Positions 5,973 to 26,178 of a stretch of DNA of 39,093 nt are shown here, piece after piece. How positions within the stretch are numbered: position 1 is the first letter of the stretch; each line of letters opens with the position of its first letter. The notes beneath the pieces were generated by a model. The model did not search any database. It saw nothing but the letters and a program-made list of their open reading frames with translations, and was not told the origin of the DNA. This DNA comes from Escherichia phage PE3-1. The translations under genes and the position numbers were made by a program. The stretch lies in sequence record KJ748011. One strand, 5' to 3'.

Positions 5973-6012
5973 GACTCAAGGTCATGACTCAAAGTCGTGG
6001 CCTTCATGATTA
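5971..6012 (+). promoter_or_regulatory. RNase III processing hairpin (R1.1-like)
   Basis: TAGACTCAAGGTCAT..(11 nt)..GTGGCCTTCATGATTA; AAGGUCA pairs with UGGCCUU; near-identical to recalled T7 R1.1 and to two other copies in this window. Confidence 0.7.
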
Positions 6013-6043
6013 ACCCTATAACCTAAATAACTGGAGCTACAAC

Positions 6044-6223
6044 ATGTATCAGAACACTATCAACTTAGAGCGCATCCGTGAACGTCAGCAGACTGAAGAT
6101 TACATTCCGAAGGGCCGCAAGCTGAACAAGACCAAGCGTGGCGGTGGTGTCAAGGGTGCTTTCCGTAACGCTGAAGGTAAAGACTCTCTGGTAAACCAAG
6201 AGAAGTATTCCGTAGGAGCGTAA
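6044..6223 (+). CDS. 1.1: gp1.1-like small basic protein (59 aa)
   Basis: KGRKLNKTKR motif as in T7 gp1.1; under 60 aa so absent from ORF track. Confidence 0.7.
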   Translation: MYQNTINLERIRERQQTEDYIPKGRKLNKTKRGGGVKGAFRNAEGKDSLVNQEKYSVGA

Positions 6224-6225
6224 AC

Positions 6226-6513
6226 ATGGGCATGTTCTCAAGAGCGCATAGCGGCAACCTGAACACTCTGCGTACAGCCATCAACAACTGGCAGACCGAG
6301 ACGGACTACAATGCAGATGTCAGCACTTGGTTTGACCCGGTGATGAACAGAACTTGTATCAAAGCGGTAATAGCCCACGTTCACACACGAGAGGTGCTCA
6401 TCGAGAAGGACTTCACGGAGTACCCGAATATCCGCGACGCAGATGTGCAGACCATTGTGATCGCCACTTGGTTCAATAAACAGTTCAACGACTACACTGG
6501 TCGATTCCTTTAA
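6226..6513 (+). CDS. 1.2: gp1.2-like protein (host dGTPase inhibitor family)
   Basis: 95 aa; N-terminal SGNL and overall resemblance to T7 gp1.2; AGGAG RBS; correct synteny. Confidence 0.7.
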   Translation: MGMFSRAHSGNLNTLRTAINNWQTETDYNADVSTWFDPVMNRTCIKAVIAHVHTREVLIEKDFTEYPNIRDADVQTIVIATWFNKQFNDYTGRFL

Positions 6514-6530
6514 TTCTGGAGACATTAACG

Positions 6531-7553
6531 ATGACAACTATCAAAACCAACCCGCACCGCGCTGTAGATTACTCTGAGTCAGGCGTTACGAAAGCACTGG
6601 CAGTAGCAGGGTCGCTGGAAGCTGAAGTGAAGTATGACGGTGTGCGGTTGAACCTTCCGGTGCTGCGAGAGGGTGAGACTTATTGGTTAAGCCGTGAGTC
6701 TAAACCACTACCAGCACTTGAGTGGATGAACTCTGAGTTAGGCAATGCGTGGACTCAGGCTGACTGGAGGTGGTTCCTTCGTCAAGCTGGCTATGAAGGT
6801 ATCGGCCTAATGATTGATGGCGAGGTCATGGTCAAAGGTGTTGACTTTAATACGTCCTCAGGTCTCATTCGAACCAAGTGGCTCAAGCCTAACAACGAGG
6901 AGTTCGCTGAATGCTATTCGGGCCGTGGCAAGAAGGTCCCGTTCTGGGTCGCCCGGTCACGACTTAAGGTTGTGGTTTACGGTATTGTCGACATGACAAC
7001 CATTGCTGACCCGAAAGCAGAAGGTCCTATCCACAGCGTCACACGCCTGAAGGCCGAAGCTATCGTCCCTCTCCTCCAGAAATACTTCCCGGAAATCGAC
7101 TGGGTTCTGTCTGAGTCGCACACGGTCTATGACCTTGAGTCGCTCAACTCCCTGTACGAACAGAAGCGTCTGGAAGGACACGAGGGTCTGGTAGTCAAGG
7201 ACCCGCTGGGTAAATACAAGCGTGGCAAGAAGTCAGGCATGTGGAAAATGAAGCCAAGCGAAGAGGCAGATGGTCACGTTGTTCGTCCGGTGTGGGGAAC
7301 GGAAGGTTTAGCCAACGAAGGTCTGGTCATTGGGTTTGACGTTATGCTTGAGAACGGGATGGAGGTCTCCGCAACTAACATTAGTCGCGCCCTTATGTCC
7401 GAGTTCACAGAGAACGTCAAGTCAGACCCAGATTACTACAAAGGGTGGGCCTGTCAGATTACCTACATGGAGGAGACACCAGATGGAAGTTTGCGACATC
7501 CGTCATTCGACCAGTGGCGAGGGACTGAGGACAATCCTACAGTCAAGATTTAA
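6531..7553 (+). CDS. 1.3: ATP-dependent DNA ligase
   Basis: 340 aa; adenylation motif KYDGVR (Lys in EVKYDG); synteny with T7 gene 1.3. Confidence 0.95.
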   Translation: MTTIKTNPHRAVDYSESGVTKALAVAGSLEAEVKYDGVRLNLPVLREGETYWLSRESKPLPALEWMNSELGNAWTQADWRWFLRQAGYEGIGLMIDGEVMVKGVDFNTSSGLIRTKWLKPNNEEFAECYSGRGKKVPFWVARSRLKVVVYGIVDMTTIADPKAEGPIHSVTRLKAEAIVPLLQKYFPEIDWVLSESHTVYDLESLNSLYEQKRLEGHEGLVVKDPLGKYKRGKKSGMWKMKPSEEADGHVVRPVWGTEGLANEGLVIGFDVMLENGMEVSATNISRALMSEFTENVKSDPDYYKGWACQITYMEETPDGSLRHPSFDQWRGTEDNPTVKI

Positions 7554-7944
7554 GGTTGACCGGACGGCTCCTTCGGGAGTCTCCAACCTGAAGGGTAAAC
7601 ACTTAGGTTATCGACGCAAGGACGGCTACTGGATTATAAACACAACCAAGGGTCAACTCCTTGCCCACCGGGTAGTCTGGGAGCTAACTCACGGTCCGAT
7701 ACCGGAAGGAATGGTTATTGACCATATAAACAGAGACCCTTCTGATAACCGCATTGAGAACCTAAGGTGTGTGACTCAGGCAGTGAACCTGACGAACGTC
7801 GCCGTCCGTAGCCACTGCAAGTCTGGCGAGAAGTATATTAACTTTGAGCCAAGGACTGGTCGCTGGCAACTGAGGATAAAGCGTAAGTCATACGGTACGT
7901 TCGCTACCATAGCCGAGGCGGTAGCCTTAAGAGATTCATTATAA
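7483..7944 (+). CDS. HNH homing endonuclease with C-terminal AP2-type DNA-binding domain
   Basis: HRVVWELTHGPIPEGMVIDHINRDPSDNRIENLR plus AP2-like GRWQLRIKRKSYGTFATIAEAVALR; start at ATG 7483 with GGAGGAG RBS, overlapping the ligase 3' end by 71 nt (track ORF 7330 extends upstream in the same frame). Confidence 0.85.
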   Translation: MEVCDIRHSTSGEGLRTILQSRFKVDRTAPSGVSNLKGKHLGYRRKDGYWIINTTKGQLLAHRVVWELTHGPIPEGMVIDHINRDPSDNRIENLRCVTQAVNLTNVAVRSHCKSGEKYINFEPRTGRWQLRIKRKSYGTFATIAEAVALRDSL

Positions 7945-7950
7945 CGTCAA

Positions 7951-7983
7951 CCCAGTGGTCTTCGGACTGCTGGGTTTCTTTGC
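7951..7983 (+). terminator. Intrinsic terminator (TE-like): 10-bp stem with UUCG tetraloop followed by TTTCTTT
   Basis: CCCAGTGGTC-TTCG-GACTGCTGGG then T-rich tract, directly after the early/ligase block. Confidence 0.7.
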
Positions 7984-8022
7984 TTATGCTAGAAAGCTAT
8001 CGTCTGGGCCACCAGCTAGACC

Positions 8023-21446: not shown

Positions 21447-21468
21447 CTAAACTATCACTATAGGGAGA
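21447..21468 (+). promoter_or_regulatory. Phage RNAP promoter CTAAACTATCACTATAGGGAGA (phi10 position)
   Basis: Only copy carrying the full GGGAGA initiation sequence; precedes the capsid gene. Confidence 0.9.
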
Positions 21469-21570: not shown

Positions 21571-22620
21571 ATGGCAAACGTTCCGGGTCAGAAAATTGGT
21601 ACAGACCAAGGTAAAGGCAAATCCAGTTCCGACGCTCTGGCGTTGTTCCTGAAGGTCTTTGCTGGTGAAGTCCTGACCGCATTCACTCGCCGCTCTGTAA
21701 CCGCTGACAAGCATATTGTCCGTACCATTCAGAACGGTAAGTCTGCTCAGTTCCCGGTCATGGGTCGCACCTCTGGTGTGTATCTGGCTCCGGGTGAGCG
21801 ACTGTCCGATAAGCGTAAAGGTATCAAACATACAGAGAAAGTGATTACCATTGATGGTCTGCTGACTGCCGATGTGATGATTTTCGACATTGAAGACGCG
21901 ATGAACCACTATGACGTGGCTGGCGAGTACTCCAACCAGTTGGGTGAAGCTCTGGCTATCGCTGCTGATGGTGCGGTTCTGGCTGAAATGGCTCTCCTGT
22001 GTAACCTCCCGGCTGCATCCAACGAAAATATTGCCGGTCTGGGCACTGCGTCAGTACTTGAAGTTGGTACTAAAGCCGACCTGAACACTCCGGCTAAGCT
22101 GGGTGAGGCAATCATTGGTCAACTGACCATTGCTCGTGCGAAGCTGACCTCCAACTACGTTCCTGCTGGCGACCGTTACTTCTACACCACGCCTGACAAC
22201 TACTCTGCAATCCTCGCCGCTCTGATGCCGAACGCTGCTAACTATGCTGCGCTGATTGATCCAGAGACTGGTAACATCCGTAACGTGATGGGCTTCGTTG
22301 TTGTCGAGGTTCCGCATCTGGTACAGGGTGGCGCTGGTGAGACTCGTGGTGACGATGGTATTTCTATCGCTTCCGGTCAGAAACACGCATTCCCGGCAAC
22401 TGCTACTGGCGCTGTTAAAGTTGCTATGGACAACGTTGTGGGTCTGTTCTCTCACCGTTCTGCTGTTGGTACTGTGAAGCTGCGTGACTTGGCGCTGGAA
22501 CGTGACCGTGACGTCGATGCTCAGGGCGACCTGATTGTTGGTAAATACGCTATGGGTCACGGTGGTCTGCGCCCTGAAGCGGCTGGTGCTCTGGTTTTCA
22601 GTCAAGCAGCAAAGGGTTAA
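21571..22620 (+). CDS. 10A: Major capsid protein 10A
   Basis: 349 aa, collinear with T7 gp10A (LALFLKVF.GEVLTAF, KHTEKVITIDGLLTADV, AANYAALIDPE, MGHGGLRPEAAG). Confidence 0.98.
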   Translation: MANVPGQKIGTDQGKGKSSSDALALFLKVFAGEVLTAFTRRSVTADKHIVRTIQNGKSAQFPVMGRTSGVYLAPGERLSDKRKGIKHTEKVITIDGLLTADVMIFDIEDAMNHYDVAGEYSNQLGEALAIAADGAVLAEMALLCNLPAASNENIAGLGTASVLEVGTKADLNTPAKLGEAIIGQLTIARAKLTSNYVPAGDRYFYTTPDNYSAILAALMPNAANYAALIDPETGNIRNVMGFVVVEVPHLVQGGAGETRGDDGISIASGQKHAFPATATGAVKVAMDNVVGLFSHRSAVGTVKLRDLALERDRDVDAQGDLIVGKYAMGHGGLRPEAAGALVFSQAAKG

Positions 22621-22883
22621 TGACCTTCAGGACTCTCTCTACTGAGGGTCCTACCTTGGAAACCTTGGAGTCCTCAGTGGGTGTCAGTCTTAAGGTTGAC
22701 TTCCCTGAGCTGGCAGATGTGACCGACTGGTCTCTGCTGGATGTAACCATGCCGGATGGTGTGAGCTACTCTCGTAGAACTTCAAGTCTCTACTTCAAGG
22801 CCACCGATGCTGTGACAGGTCTTGTAACTGTTGGATATGACGGGTCTACCGTTAGGTCATTCAACGTTTCGTTCACAAACTAA
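21571..22883 (+). CDS. 10B: Minor capsid protein 10B, predicted product of a -1 ribosomal frameshift at GGTTTTC (22593-22599) joining 10A to the 22620 ORF frame
   Basis: The -1 frame is open from the slip site through ORF 22620-22883; slip heptamer in the same position relative to the 10A stop as in T7 (recalled). Confidence 0.6.
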
Positions 22884-22888
22884 TTGAA

Positions 22889-22927
22889 ACCCCTTGGGTG
22901 CCTTCGGGTGCTTGAGGGGTTTTTTTG
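22889..22927 (+). terminator. Intrinsic terminator (T-phi-like) after the capsid gene
   Basis: CCCCTTGGGTGCC-TTCG-GGTGCTTGAGGGG hairpin followed by T8; closely resembles T7 T-phi. Confidence 0.9.
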
Positions 22928-22941
22928 CTTAAGGAGGGCCT

Positions 22942-23508
22942 ATGGCTCAATACATTCCACTGAATGCTAACGATGACTTAGACGCCATCAACGATATGTT
23001 AGCTACTATCGGTGAACCAGCAGTCCTACAGCTTGACGAGGGGAACGCTGACGTCTCTAACGCTCAACGTATCCTGCATCGTGTCAATCGTCAGGTCCAA
23101 GCTAAAGGCTGGAACTTTAACATCAACGAAGCCGCTGTCCTGACACCTGATGTCCAAGACAATAGGATTAGATTCCTGCCGTCATACCTTCGTGTAATGA
23201 CCACTGGGGCCACCAGCTACTACAGCAACATGGGTGGATACCTGTACGACCTATCCACTCAGTCAACCACTTTCACCGACCCTATCACGGTAGAGCTTGT
23301 GGAGATGAAGCCATTCTCCGAGATGCCTGTGGTCTTCAGGGACTACATCGTCACTAAAGCTAGCCGTGAGTTCAACGCTAAGTTCTTCGGTAGCCCAGAG
23401 TCAGAGCTATACCTTCGTGAGCAGGAAGCAGAACTCTATCAGCAGGTTATGGAGTACGAGATGGACACTGGTCGCTACAACATGATGTCTGACATCGGGA
23501 GGGACTAA
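22942..23508 (+). CDS. 11: Tail tubular protein A (gp11)
   Basis: 188 aa; IGEP, WNFNI, DYIVTKASREFN, MEYEMD.G.YNM parallel T7 gp11. Confidence 0.93.
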   Translation: MAQYIPLNANDDLDAINDMLATIGEPAVLQLDEGNADVSNAQRILHRVNRQVQAKGWNFNINEAAVLTPDVQDNRIRFLPSYLRVMTTGATSYYSNMGGYLYDLSTQSTTFTDPITVELVEMKPFSEMPVVFRDYIVTKASREFNAKFFGSPESELYLREQEAELYQQVMEYEMDTGRYNMMSDIGRD

Positions 23509-23735
23509 TGGCTAGTCACAACCTGAAGATTCACCGCCAGCACTTTGGTCCGGTACAGCTAGGTCTAAAGACAGCAGAGCTGAGACTTAACGACCGGGAC
23601 TTTAAGGTTGGCGACTGGCTTATCCTGAATGAGTGGGACAACGGGTATACTGGACAACAGGTAGCGCGTAAGGTTGTCCACATTGCTGACGTTGGTGACA
23701 TCGCTGAAGGATATGTCCTAATGAGTATGATTTAA
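23508..23735 (+). CDS. DUF3850 / ASCH-like (PUA-fold) small protein
   Basis: 75 aa; HNLKIHRQHFGPVQLGLKTAELRLNDRDFKVGDWLILNEW matches my recollection of the DUF3850 consensus; not part of the T7 gene set. Confidence 0.65.
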   Translation: MASHNLKIHRQHFGPVQLGLKTAELRLNDRDFKVGDWLILNEWDNGYTGQQVARKVVHIADVGDIAEGYVLMSMI

Positions 23736-23744
23736 GGAGGGCCT

Positions 23745-26102
23745 ATGCCACTAATTACTCAATCAATCAAGAACCTTAAAGGTGGTATTAGCCAACAGCC
23801 TGATATACTGAGGTTCTCAGACCAAGGCGAGGCACAGGTTAACTGCTGGTCATCCGAGAGTGATGGTCTCCAGAAGCGCCCACCTACAGTCTTCAAGAGA
23901 CGTCTTAACATCGACGTTGGGAGTAACCCTAAGTTCCACCTGATTAACCGTGACGAGCATGAGCAGTATTACATCGTGTTCAATGGGTCCAACATTCAGG
24001 TAGTTGACTTGAGTGGTAATCAATACTCAGTGTCCGGTGCGGTAGATTACGTTAAGTCCTCCAACCCGCGAGATGACATCCGCGTCGTTACCGTGGCAGA
24101 CTATACGTTCGTCGTTAACCGTAAGGTTGTAGTCAAAGGTGGAAGCGAGAAGTCACACTCTGGTTATAACCGCAAAGCACGAGCTTTAATTAACCTGCGT
24201 GGTGGACAGTATGGTCGAACCCTTAAGGTGGGAATCAACGGTGGCGTTAAGGTCTCTCATAAGCTACCAGCAGGTAACGATGCCGCGAATGACCCGCCTA
24301 AGGTTGACGCTCAAGCCATTGGTGCAACTCTGAGAGGCCTTCTTGTTACTGCCTATCCTTCTTTCACGTTCGACCTTGGGTCTGGCTTCCTGTTAATTAC
24401 TGCCCCTGAAGGGACCGACATTAACTCAGTGGAGACGGAGGATGGCTACGCTAACCAGCTAATAAGCCCAGTCCTAGACACTGTGCAGACAATCTCTAAA
24501 CTACCTCTTGCCGCTCCTAATGGGTATATCATTAAGATTCAAGGTGAGACAAACAGTAGCGCCGATGAATACTACGTGATGTATGACTCCAACACTAAGA
24601 CGTGGAAGGAGACAGTGGAGCCGGGAGTTGTAACTGGGTTCGATGTCACCACAATGCCACATGCTCTGGTCAGACAGTTTGATGGCTCCTTTGAGTTCAA
24701 GACTCTGGATTGGTCCAAGCGTGGTGCTGGTAACGATGACACAAACCCTATGCCTAGCTTCGTTGATGCTACGATTAATGATGTGTTCTTCTACAGGAAC
24801 AGACTTGGGTTCTTGTCGGGTGAGAACGTAATCATGAGCCGTTCAGCCAGCTACTTTGCGTTCTTCCCTAAGAGTGTGGCGACACTGAGTGATGATGACC
24901 CTATTGATGTAGCTGTAAGTAACCCTCGAATCTCAATCCTTAAGTATGCCGTTCCGTTTAGCGAGCAGCTACTACTTTGGTCGGATGAGGTTCAGTTCGT
25001 GATGACAAGCTCTGGGGTACTTACCTCGAAGTCTATCCAGCTTGATGTAGGCTCAGAGTTTGCCCTAGGGGACAATGCCAGACCGTTCGCTGTAGGACGC
25101 TCAGTCTTCTTCTCAGCGCCTCGTGGGTCATTCACCAGCATTAAGCGATACTTCGCTGTAGCTGATGCGTCTGATGTGAAGGATGCCGATGATACAACTG
25201 GTCACGTACTGTCCTACATCCCTAACGGGGTGTTTGATATTCAAGGTACAGGGACTGAGAACTACATCTGCGTCAACTCTACAGGTGCATACAACCGTAT
25301 CTACATCTACAAGTTCTTGTTTAAGGACGGCGTACAGCTTCAAGCCTCTTGGTCACACTGGGAGTTCCCTAAAGATGATAAGATTCTGGCGTCTGCTTCT
25401 ATTGGCTCTACCATGTTCATCGTTCGTCAGCACCAAGGAGGGGTAGACATTGAGCACCTTAAGTTCATCAAGGAGGCAACTGACTTCCCGTCAGAGCCAT
25501 ATAGACTACACATTGACTCCAAGGTGTCTATGGTAATTCCAATTGACTCATATAATGCTGACGCATATAAGACTACGGTTGACATTGGTGCTGCTTATGG
25601 CGGCAACGCTCCGTCTCCCGGTCGGTACTATCTGATTGACAGTCAGGGTGCTTATGTGGACCTTGGGGACTTGACCAGTAGCTCTACTGTGGTTATCCTC
25701 AACGGCGATTGGTCAGGACGCACAGTGTTCATCGGACGGTCCTATCTGATGTCCTACAAGTTCTCACGGTTCCTGATTAAGATTGAAGATGATAGTGGCA
25801 CTCAGTCTGAAGACACTGGTCGTCTACAGCTTCGTCGGGCTTGGGTAAACTACAAAGACACTGGCGCTCTGAGACTCATTGTCAGAAACGGTGAGCGGGA
25901 GTTCGTGAATACCTTCAACGGGTACACCCTTGGGCAGCAAACCATCGGGACTACAAACATTGGTGACGGGCAGTATCGCTTCGCTATGAATGGTAACGCA
26001 TTAACCACGAGTCTAACCTTAGAGTCCGACTATCCCACCCCAGTGTCAATCGTTGGGTGTGGCTGGGAGGCGTCATACGCTAAGAAAGCTCGTTCCGTCT
26101 AA
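23745..26102 (+). CDS. 12: Tail tubular protein B (gp12)
   Basis: 785 aa, collinear with T7 gp12 (SQSIKNLKGGISQQPDILR, INRDEHEQYY, VTVADYTFVVNR, GRLQLRRAWVNY, IVGCGWE). Confidence 0.97.
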   Translation: MPLITQSIKNLKGGISQQPDILRFSDQGEAQVNCWSSESDGLQKRPPTVFKRRLNIDVGSNPKFHLINRDEHEQYYIVFNGSNIQVVDLSGNQYSVSGAVDYVKSSNPRDDIRVVTVADYTFVVNRKVVVKGGSEKSHSGYNRKARALINLRGGQYGRTLKVGINGGVKVSHKLPAGNDAANDPPKVDAQAIGATLRGLLVTAYPSFTFDLGSGFLLITAPEGTDINSVETEDGYANQLISPVLDTVQTISKLPLAAPNGYIIKIQGETNSSADEYYVMYDSNTKTWKETVEPGVVTGFDVTTMPHALVRQFDGSFEFKTLDWSKRGAGNDDTNPMPSFVDATINDVFFYRNRLGFLSGENVIMSRSASYFAFFPKSVATLSDDDPIDVAVSNPRISILKYAVPFSEQLLLWSDEVQFVMTSSGVLTSKSIQLDVGSEFALGDNARPFAVGRSVFFSAPRGSFTSIKRYFAVADASDVKDADDTTGHVLSYIPNGVFDIQGTGTENYICVNSTGAYNRIYIYKFLFKDGVQLQASWSHWEFPKDDKILASASIGSTMFIVRQHQGGVDIEHLKFIKEATDFPSEPYRLHIDSKVSMVIPIDSYNADAYKTTVDIGAAYGGNAPSPGRYYLIDSQGAYVDLGDLTSSSTVVILNGDWSGRTVFIGRSYLMSYKFSRFLIKIEDDSGTQSEDTGRLQLRRAWVNYKDTGALRLIVRNGEREFVNTFNGYTLGQQTIGTTNIGDGQYRFAMNGNALTTSLTLESDYPTPVSIVGCGWEASYAKKARSV

Positions 26103-26127
26103 CTTATTGAAGGGCCTATAGATTTAC

Positions 26128-26149
26128 CTTAACTATCACTATAGGGACT
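26128..26149 (+). promoter_or_regulatory. Phage RNAP promoter CTTAACTATCACTATAGGGAC (phi13 position)
   Basis: Consensus match; embedded between a perfect 12-bp inverted repeat. Confidence 0.85.
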
Positions 26150-26178
26150 ATAGGCCCTTAAGGTTATAAGGAGACTTT

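Follow-up and report, generated by a model that had tools for sequence, protein, structure and literature searches.

The 39,093-nt stretch of Escherichia phage PE3-1 (sequence record KJ748011), called the window below and used in full for all coordinates, carries an open reading frame (ORF) of 75 amino acids (aa) at 23508-23735 on the + strand, between the tail tubular genes gp11 and gp12. We favour, at a probability of roughly 0.6, the view that it is an accessory DUF3850 cassette that was placed in the late operon and later lost precisely, and that its product is a nucleotide- or nucleic-acid-type protein outside the virion. The gene level of this explanation, which takes in cassette anatomy, coupling signals, selection, family and fold, polymorphism and dispensability, has largely been shown. 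The gene itself is not new, as it belongs to a known but uncharacterised family and is annotated in many relatives.

Anatomy and history of the gp11/gp12 junction

The ORF follows gp11 (22942-23508, +; 188 aa; tail tubular protein A, the gatekeeper or adaptor; Pfam Tube, E 2.6e-46) and precedes gp12 (23745-26102, +; 785 aa; tail tubular protein B, the nozzle; Pfam Phage_nozzle, E 0). Its ATG (23508-23510) and the gp11 stop codon TAA (23506-23508) have an A in common in the context GAC TAATG GCT. A GGGAGGG Shine-Dalgarno (SD) sequence (23497-23503, +), recognised by codon comparison across loci, lies 4-5 nt ahead of this ATG within the last Gly-Arg-(Asp) codons of gp11, and the stop TAA of the ORF (23733-23735) is embedded in the SD of gp12. 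The original prediction, which was made from the letters of the window alone, had described this 75-aa ORF with its overlapping start and had taken it for an addition between two genes that are adjacent in T7. All of this agrees with what was found: the tail genes of T7 adjoin across a 23-nt spacer, and T7, CR8 and SFPH2-type Kayfunavirus have no gene between them.

The junction was compared in more than 30 loci, 25 from IMG/VR and the remainder from GenBank. In state A, seen in SFPH2-type Kayfunavirus, the gene is absent and gp11 ends in GGT CGA GAC TAA, followed by an 11-13 nt spacer, TAGGAGGTGAT, and the ATG of gp12; the outgroups CR8 and T7 show this arrangement too, with a short spacer carrying its own SD. 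In state B (14 surveyed loci and about 150 GenBank records) the gene is present and gp11 ends in GGG AGG GAC TAATG. In state C (K1F, Zappy, PR_Kaz2018 and locus L008) the gene is absent and gp12 itself starts at GGG AGG GAC TAATG. The window and state C differ by exactly 237 nt, the presence/absence cassette at 23508-23744 (+; ATG...TAAGGAGGGCCT); with slashes at the borders, the window reads ...GGGACTA/ATGGCT...GGGCCT/ATGCCACTAATT and K1F and Zappy read ...GGGACTA/ATGCCGCTTATT. Such a comparison of relatives had been proposed together with the prediction, and it shows that the gene is not universal, being missing from K1F, Zappy, PR_Kaz2018 and SFPH2-type phages. Among close relatives the ORF was covered in 156 of 221 megablast matches (~70%).

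The end of gp11 reads GGG AGG GAC or GGG AGA GAC in 14/14 gene-bearing and 4/4 precise-loss loci, and GGT CGA GAC in all of the 10+ ancestral-type loci. The synonymous recoding of GGT CGA to GGG AGG(A), by which the SD is created, accompanies states B and C without exception and occurs in no state A locus. Neighbour-joining trees built from gp11 and from the first 1200 nt of gp12 placed state A at the base and state C within the crown clade of state B, the nearest neighbour of state C being a state B locus (L010) at 97-99% identity. Because state C nests within state B, and because old state B alleles retain an A-type gp12 SD, the most parsimonious order would be A to B to C, with an old insertion ahead of the existing gp12 SD and a later precise loss.

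The steps that we propose start from an ancestral junction of the kind found in T7, CR8 and SFPH2-type phages, with gp11-TAA, a short spacer with its own SD, and ATG-gp12. In one Kayfunavirus lineage the DUF3850 gene would have been placed directly behind gp11, its ATG overlapping the gp11 stop as TAATG, and its SD would have been made from the last codons of gp11 by the synonymous change of GGT CGA GAC to GGG AGG GAC. The ORF would be translated by coupling to gp11 on a read-through late mRNA and would end within the SD of the next gene. At least once the cassette would have been lost precisely, giving the K1F-type junction in which gp12 would have inherited the TAATG coupling.

The transcription signals of the region bear on the read-through mRNA. 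The last phage RNA polymerase promoter ahead of the ORF has its core, a match to ACTATCACTATAGG, upstream of gene 10 (21451-21464, +). This core has 11 matches in the window, on the + strand only and none between 21451 and 26132, and the next promoter, which is of the phi13 type and identical to an annotated promoter of CR44b, closes the transcription unit at 26124-26147 (+). A T-phi-type intrinsic terminator with a 17-bp stem and a T run follows gene 10 (22886-22923, +), at the same place as phiTE in EcoDS1. This terminator and the promoter gap up to phi13 put the DUF3850 ORF on the late gene 10-11-12 read-through transcript. A sigma-70 promoter scan gave 5 matches, with 5.1 in shuffles and hence no excess, and with no phage promoter in the interval either, the ORF has no promoter of its own. 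An Rfam scan of 22500-24200 at E <= 1 returned two chance-level matches and no recognised RNA element.

Across 12 closely related loci the ORF has a pN/pS of 0.14 (0.03 for gp11) and 7/5/20 variable sites at codon positions 1/2/3; it is a genuine gene under purifying selection. An antisense ORF of 56 aa (23531-23701) was considered and rejected, as phage promoters and genes lie without exception on the + strand and the variation falls mostly on third positions of the + frame. In the same loci 20/75 third positions of the cassette (23508-23732) are segregating, versus 269/588 in the flanks (Fisher p 0.002), and third-position nucleotide diversity (pi) is 0.070 versus 0.12-0.19 in the gp11 and gp12 flanks, making silent-site diversity about half. 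This suggests either recent recombinational spread of the crown allele or extra constraint at the nucleotide level, and both fit.

The low silent diversity relative to both flanks, the patchy presence of the gene and a homing-type Endonuclease_7 gene at the same junction in the phages yong1 and KM02 would all be accounted for by a selfish or recently sweeping cassette, of little benefit to the phage and spread by recombination between near-identical flanks. The cassette, however, encodes no nuclease, transposase, integrase or other mobility function, its Pfam families being DUF3850 and ASCH only. Purifying selection acts on its protein, which has lost none of the family-invariant residues, and the divergence of the alleles at this site (45-85% identity in CR44b, L018 and LET1) shows that the gene has long resided there. 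We consider this explanation unlikely, though not negligible.

The Endonuclease_7-family gene of Hafnia phage yong1 (L006, 1748-2188) encodes 146 aa, lies between the DUF3850 gene and gp12, and uses the ancestral gp12 SD; a gene of this family is found at the same junction in Escherichia phage KM02, and Kayfunavirus LI10P1 retains a C-terminal remnant that is 94% identical over 51 aa. Taken with the DUF3850 gene, these insertions mark the gp11-gp12 junction as a recurrent insertion site.

Records of relatives carry the gene under several names. Positions 22800-24000 are 100% identical to Escherichia phage JSS1 (KX689784.2; Autographiviridae, Studiervirinae, Kayfunavirus), whose record labels the ORF 'activating signal cointegrator' and its neighbours 'tail tubular protein' and 'tail tube'. 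The equivalent ORF is an 'unknown product' in EcoDS1 and elsewhere an 'RNA-binding protein' or 'DUF3850 domain-containing protein'; it is already annotated at the gp11/gp12 junction in about 150 Kayfunavirus genomes and is gene 11.05 in CR44b. These ORFs share the locus, the TAATG overlap and the recoded gp11 end with that of PE3-1, while the CR44b allele differs in being only 45% identical and in keeping the ancestral gp12 SD. Other divergent state B alleles are those of L018 (85% identity) and of Pectobacterium phage LET1 (61%). A literature search on DUF3850, on the Kayfunavirus 'RNA-binding protein' and on 'activating signal cointegrator' with 'tail tubular protein' found no study of the 75-aa gene. 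The LET1 gene (L042, 4001-4219) occupies the same gp11/gp12 slot behind a recoded gp11 end, GGGAGGGACTAATG, and since LET1 is a T7-like phage of Pectobacterium, the arrangement reaches beyond coliphages.

Family, fold and possible role of the 75-aa protein

The protein matches Pfam DUF3850 (PF12961) with E 1.9e-19 and 70.1 bits over a gathering threshold of 22.9, residues 4-73 falling on profile positions 2-76 of 77. It also matches Pfam ASCH (PF04266) with E 1.4e-5 and 26.2 bits over a threshold of 21.2, at profile positions 2-61 of 103 only, the N-terminal ~60% of the model. The best PHROG match is PHROG 986, 'RNA-binding protein' (E 2.8e-35), a 253-position profile matched only at 95-171. 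NCBIfam gave no match, and the PADLOC match was weak and partial (E 0.007). The sole solved relative found by sequence is PDB 3IUW (E 1.2e-10; profile E 4.6e-19), the founding structure and reference fold of DUF3850, to which the 75-aa protein conforms. With two Pfam families above threshold and 3IUW matched, the DUF3850/ASCH-like assignment with a PUA-like fold, made in the original prediction, is upheld. The 3IUW protein is an 'activating signal cointegrator' (NP_814290.1) of Enterococcus faecalis V583, ~35% identical to the PE3-1 protein; being a structural-genomics deposit, it transfers no mechanism. On these matches the 75-aa protein is predicted to be a minimal ASCH/PUA-like beta-barrel.

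The family is large, with 5324 cluster representatives (50% identity) at E <= 1e-3 in an exhaustive HMMER search. Conservation was scored on 152 aligned domain stretches from 150 listed representatives, residues being called invariant when each was kept in >=90%. All 15 such residues (H4, L6, K7, G19, K21, E24, R26, N28, D29, R30, G35, D36, L40, E42 and G49) are present in the 75-aa protein, and its invariant polar set (H4, K7, K21, E24, R26, N28, D29, R30, D36 and E42) is complete. GxKxxExR was reportedly given as an ASCH motif by Iyer et al. in 2006, and the stretch G19-L-K21-T-A-E24-L-R26 fits it. A Pfam scan of ten longer representatives for fused domains found a second Pfam domain in none. 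So dense a set of conserved polar residues suggests a specific pocket, for a ligand or for catalysis, that would accept a nucleobase, nucleotide or nucleic acid, and speaks against a structural role. A putative pocket formed by this polar cluster would be in keeping with the PUA/ASCH clan, which recognises nucleotides and modified bases (PMC7641849; bioRxiv 10.64898/2026.01.15.699771).

Searches of the K1F genome by tblastn and by profile found no DUF3850 homologue (best E > 1), and as K1F lives without any copy, the gene is dispensable. In the CR44b record the remark 'matches in mass spectrometry analysis' stands on gp10A, 11, 12, 14 and 15 and not on gene 11.05; the missing remark is weak evidence, and the product is probably outside the virion. 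In siphoviruses, P2-like phages and prophages, DUF3850 homologues are found among early, replication or accessory genes. One lies beside a DNA primase, other settings are an early region of the T1 kind and the region of gene A in P2, and in lambdoid prophages the homologue sits at the end nearest the integrase. We propose that the protein would be a conditionally useful accessory of the 'moron' type, whose target in infected cells would be nucleic acid or a nucleotide, and which would lie outside the virion and be dispensable for phage production. Like phage morons, this is a small gene that is missing from close relatives and set at a gene boundary with its neighbours undisturbed. Classical morons carry their own promoter and terminator, whereas in the PE3-1 cassette both are missing and the gene depends on translational coupling to gp11.

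Several points weigh against this accessory-gene reading. The support from CR44b consists in the absence of a remark, small proteins are easily missed, and gp13 likewise carries none. Late, high-level expression coupled to gp11 would be unusual for an accessory gene whose homologues lie in early regions. To our knowledge no DUF3850 protein, 3IUW included, has a known ligand or activity. The direction of events rests on parsimony from ~30 loci in mosaic, recombining genomes, in which re-gain through homologous recombination is equally possible for individual lineages.

The free-standing DUF3850 barrel might hold a small molecule or modified base in the service of counter-defence, a proposal that we regard as rather improbable. 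It might, for example, sequester or hydrolyse a modified nucleotide freed when a methylated host chromosome is degraded; a candidate ligand would be m6-dAMP, the signal that the PUA-Cal-HAD defence system senses with its PUA domain, and placement in the late operon would give a high dosage. The hints towards it are the count of 11 invariant polar residues in 75 positions, the binding of nucleotides and modified bases in the PUA/ASCH clan, and the patchy presence and absence of the gene, which is typical of anti-defence genes. A further hint comes from three enterobacterial prophages (L039, L040 and L041, at ~6001-8001), in which one and the same DUF3850 protein of 84 aa (P0194) precedes a conserved ORF of 72 aa, with a DNA adenine methyltransferase as the second gene on. 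The methyltransferase family differs in each (Dam PF05869, MethyltransfD12 PF02086 and MT-A70 PF05063). This neighbourhood did not recur in four other contexts and is a hint only.

A minor tail or virion component, or a factor for the assembly of the gp11-gp12 tail, would account for the position in a structural operon, the late co-expression and the TAATG coupling to gp11. K1F, T7, CR8 and SFPH2-type phages, however, build the same tail without the gene, both neighbours but not gene 11.05 were flagged in the mass spectrometry of CR44b virions, and homologues of other phages lie in non-structural regions, all of which makes a tail role very unlikely.

Among ASCH proteins with an activity are E. 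coli YqfB, an ac4C amidohydrolase, Zymomonas ZmASCH, a single-stranded RNA ribonuclease, and human TRIP4/ASC-1. The DUF3850 protein differs from them as a shortened version of 75 residues, covering the first ~60% of the Pfam ASCH model. YqfB, an N4-acylcytidine amidohydrolase of nucleoside salvage, requires Lys21, Thr24, Arg26 and Glu74 for catalysis (PMC9599836). An enzyme of this type was considered, as the protein has K21 and R26, the Lys and Arg of the conserved octapeptide. It was rejected because the catalytic set is only half matched: the Thr position, equated through the common octapeptide, is Glu24, which is 97% conserved in the DUF3850 family, and the chain stops at residue 75 without the C-terminal segment that bears Glu74. 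No sequence match to YqfB was found even at E <= 10, and we hold such an identity to be highly improbable. DUF3850 domains, which are enriched in phages, also occur in ParB-CTPase-DUF3850 fusions of prophages, one of which binds CTP through its ParB part (PNAS 2025, PMC12704722 / bioRxiv 10.1101/2025.10.10.680097); the PE3-1 protein differs in being a free-standing domain, with no ParB fold and no parA neighbour.

The repeated 16-mer and further features of the window

The original prediction had also reported one identical sequence ahead of gp11 (22929-22944) and gp12 (23730-23747), and had read it as the result of an insertion that duplicated the initiation region. The identity and the first position hold, and the second copy starts at 23732, 2 nt later than given. 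The 16-mer, TTAAGGAGGGCCTATG, has exactly two + strand copies. The copy at 22929-22944 comprises the SD and ATG of gp11 and is also found in relatives without the ORF; the copy at 23732-23747 comprises the SD and ATG of gp12, with the ORF stop inside the SD, and relatives show GGAGGGCAC, GGAGGGCAT or GGAGGTCCT in its place. Within 3 mismatches TTAAGGAGGGCCTATG has 5 matches, with 0.17 expected from dinucleotide shuffles. When 41 plausible gene starts are compared in 820 pairs, the leaders of gp11 and gp12 are the sole identical pair, 1 further pair differing at 2 positions and 9 at 3. Near-identical pairs occur because leaders converge on AAGGAGG-N-ATG, and the identity is the extreme of a constrained distribution, not a wholly independent rarity.

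That the two copies are the footprint of the insertion itself is scarcely credible, even though they are exact, form the only identical pair of leaders, and include one that abuts the right end of the insert. They stand 803 nt apart and enclose gp11 as well as the ORF, so that the 237-nt insert is not what they flank; the true cassette borders have in common only GGAGGG-N-CT-(A)-ATG (23498-23510 and 23736-23747). The gp11 copy is present in at least four gene-less state A loci (L004, L019, L020 and L024), most gene-bearing loci are without it, and the gp11 leaders of state B, unrelated to it in most cases, fall into at least five types. Straight after the ORF stop, L018, CR44b and yong1 keep the ancestral gp12 SD, GGAGGTGAT or GGAGGTGCT, in the contexts TAAC TGGAGGTGAT ATG, TAAC TGAGGAGGTGCT ATG and TAAG TGGAGGTGAT ATG. 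The gp12 leader of EcoDS1, GGAGGTCCT, is intermediate, and GGAGGGCAC and GGAGGGCAT are sister variants. The ancestral SD of the old alleles and the EcoDS1 intermediate identify the gp12 copy of the 16-mer as a late, stepwise change within one clade, and the claim of a duplicated initiation region is not sustained. Gene conversion from the gp11 leader was set aside as a less likely source of the second copy, since the EcoDS1 leader and the two variants suggest stepwise point changes. The identity of the two leaders would then be a late, stepwise convergence of two strong SD sequences.

Two other sequences in the window resemble the 16-mer. The non-coding left end carries a copy with one mismatch, TTAAAGAGGGCCTATG, at 568-583 on the - strand (+ strand CATAGGCCCTCTTTAA), for which a rough estimate gives ~0.001 expected, and ATAGGCCCTT-AAGG stands at 26150-26163, behind the phi13 promoter. 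A perfect 12-bp inverted repeat, AAGGGCCTATAG / CTATAGGCCCTT, at 26110-26121 and 26148-26159 brackets the phi13-type promoter; it would fold as a hairpin in RNA read through from gene 12 and is possibly an RNase III-type site like R13 of T7. Upstream, where the major capsid gene (21571-22620) ends, an 87-aa ORF begins (22620-22883, +). Its counterpart in CR8, CR44b and EcoDS1 is annotated as the frameshift extension of gene 10B, and in the JSS1 record it is a separate 'hypothetical protein'.

Meaning for T7-like phages and the DUF3850 family

In this locus one can see cleanly, in a natural case, how an extra gene is accommodated in the tightly packed structural operon of a T7-like phage, with an SD gained by synonymous recoding, a stop codon inside the next SD, and an exact loss after which the coupling signal remains. 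The phage- and prophage-associated DUF3850 family is very large (>5000 clusters at 50% identity); it has a solved structure and a putative polar pocket that is strikingly conserved. The natural, isogenic-like pairs of phages with and without the gene, EcoDS1 and JSS1 on one side and K1F and Zappy on the other, make DUF3850 experimentally tractable.
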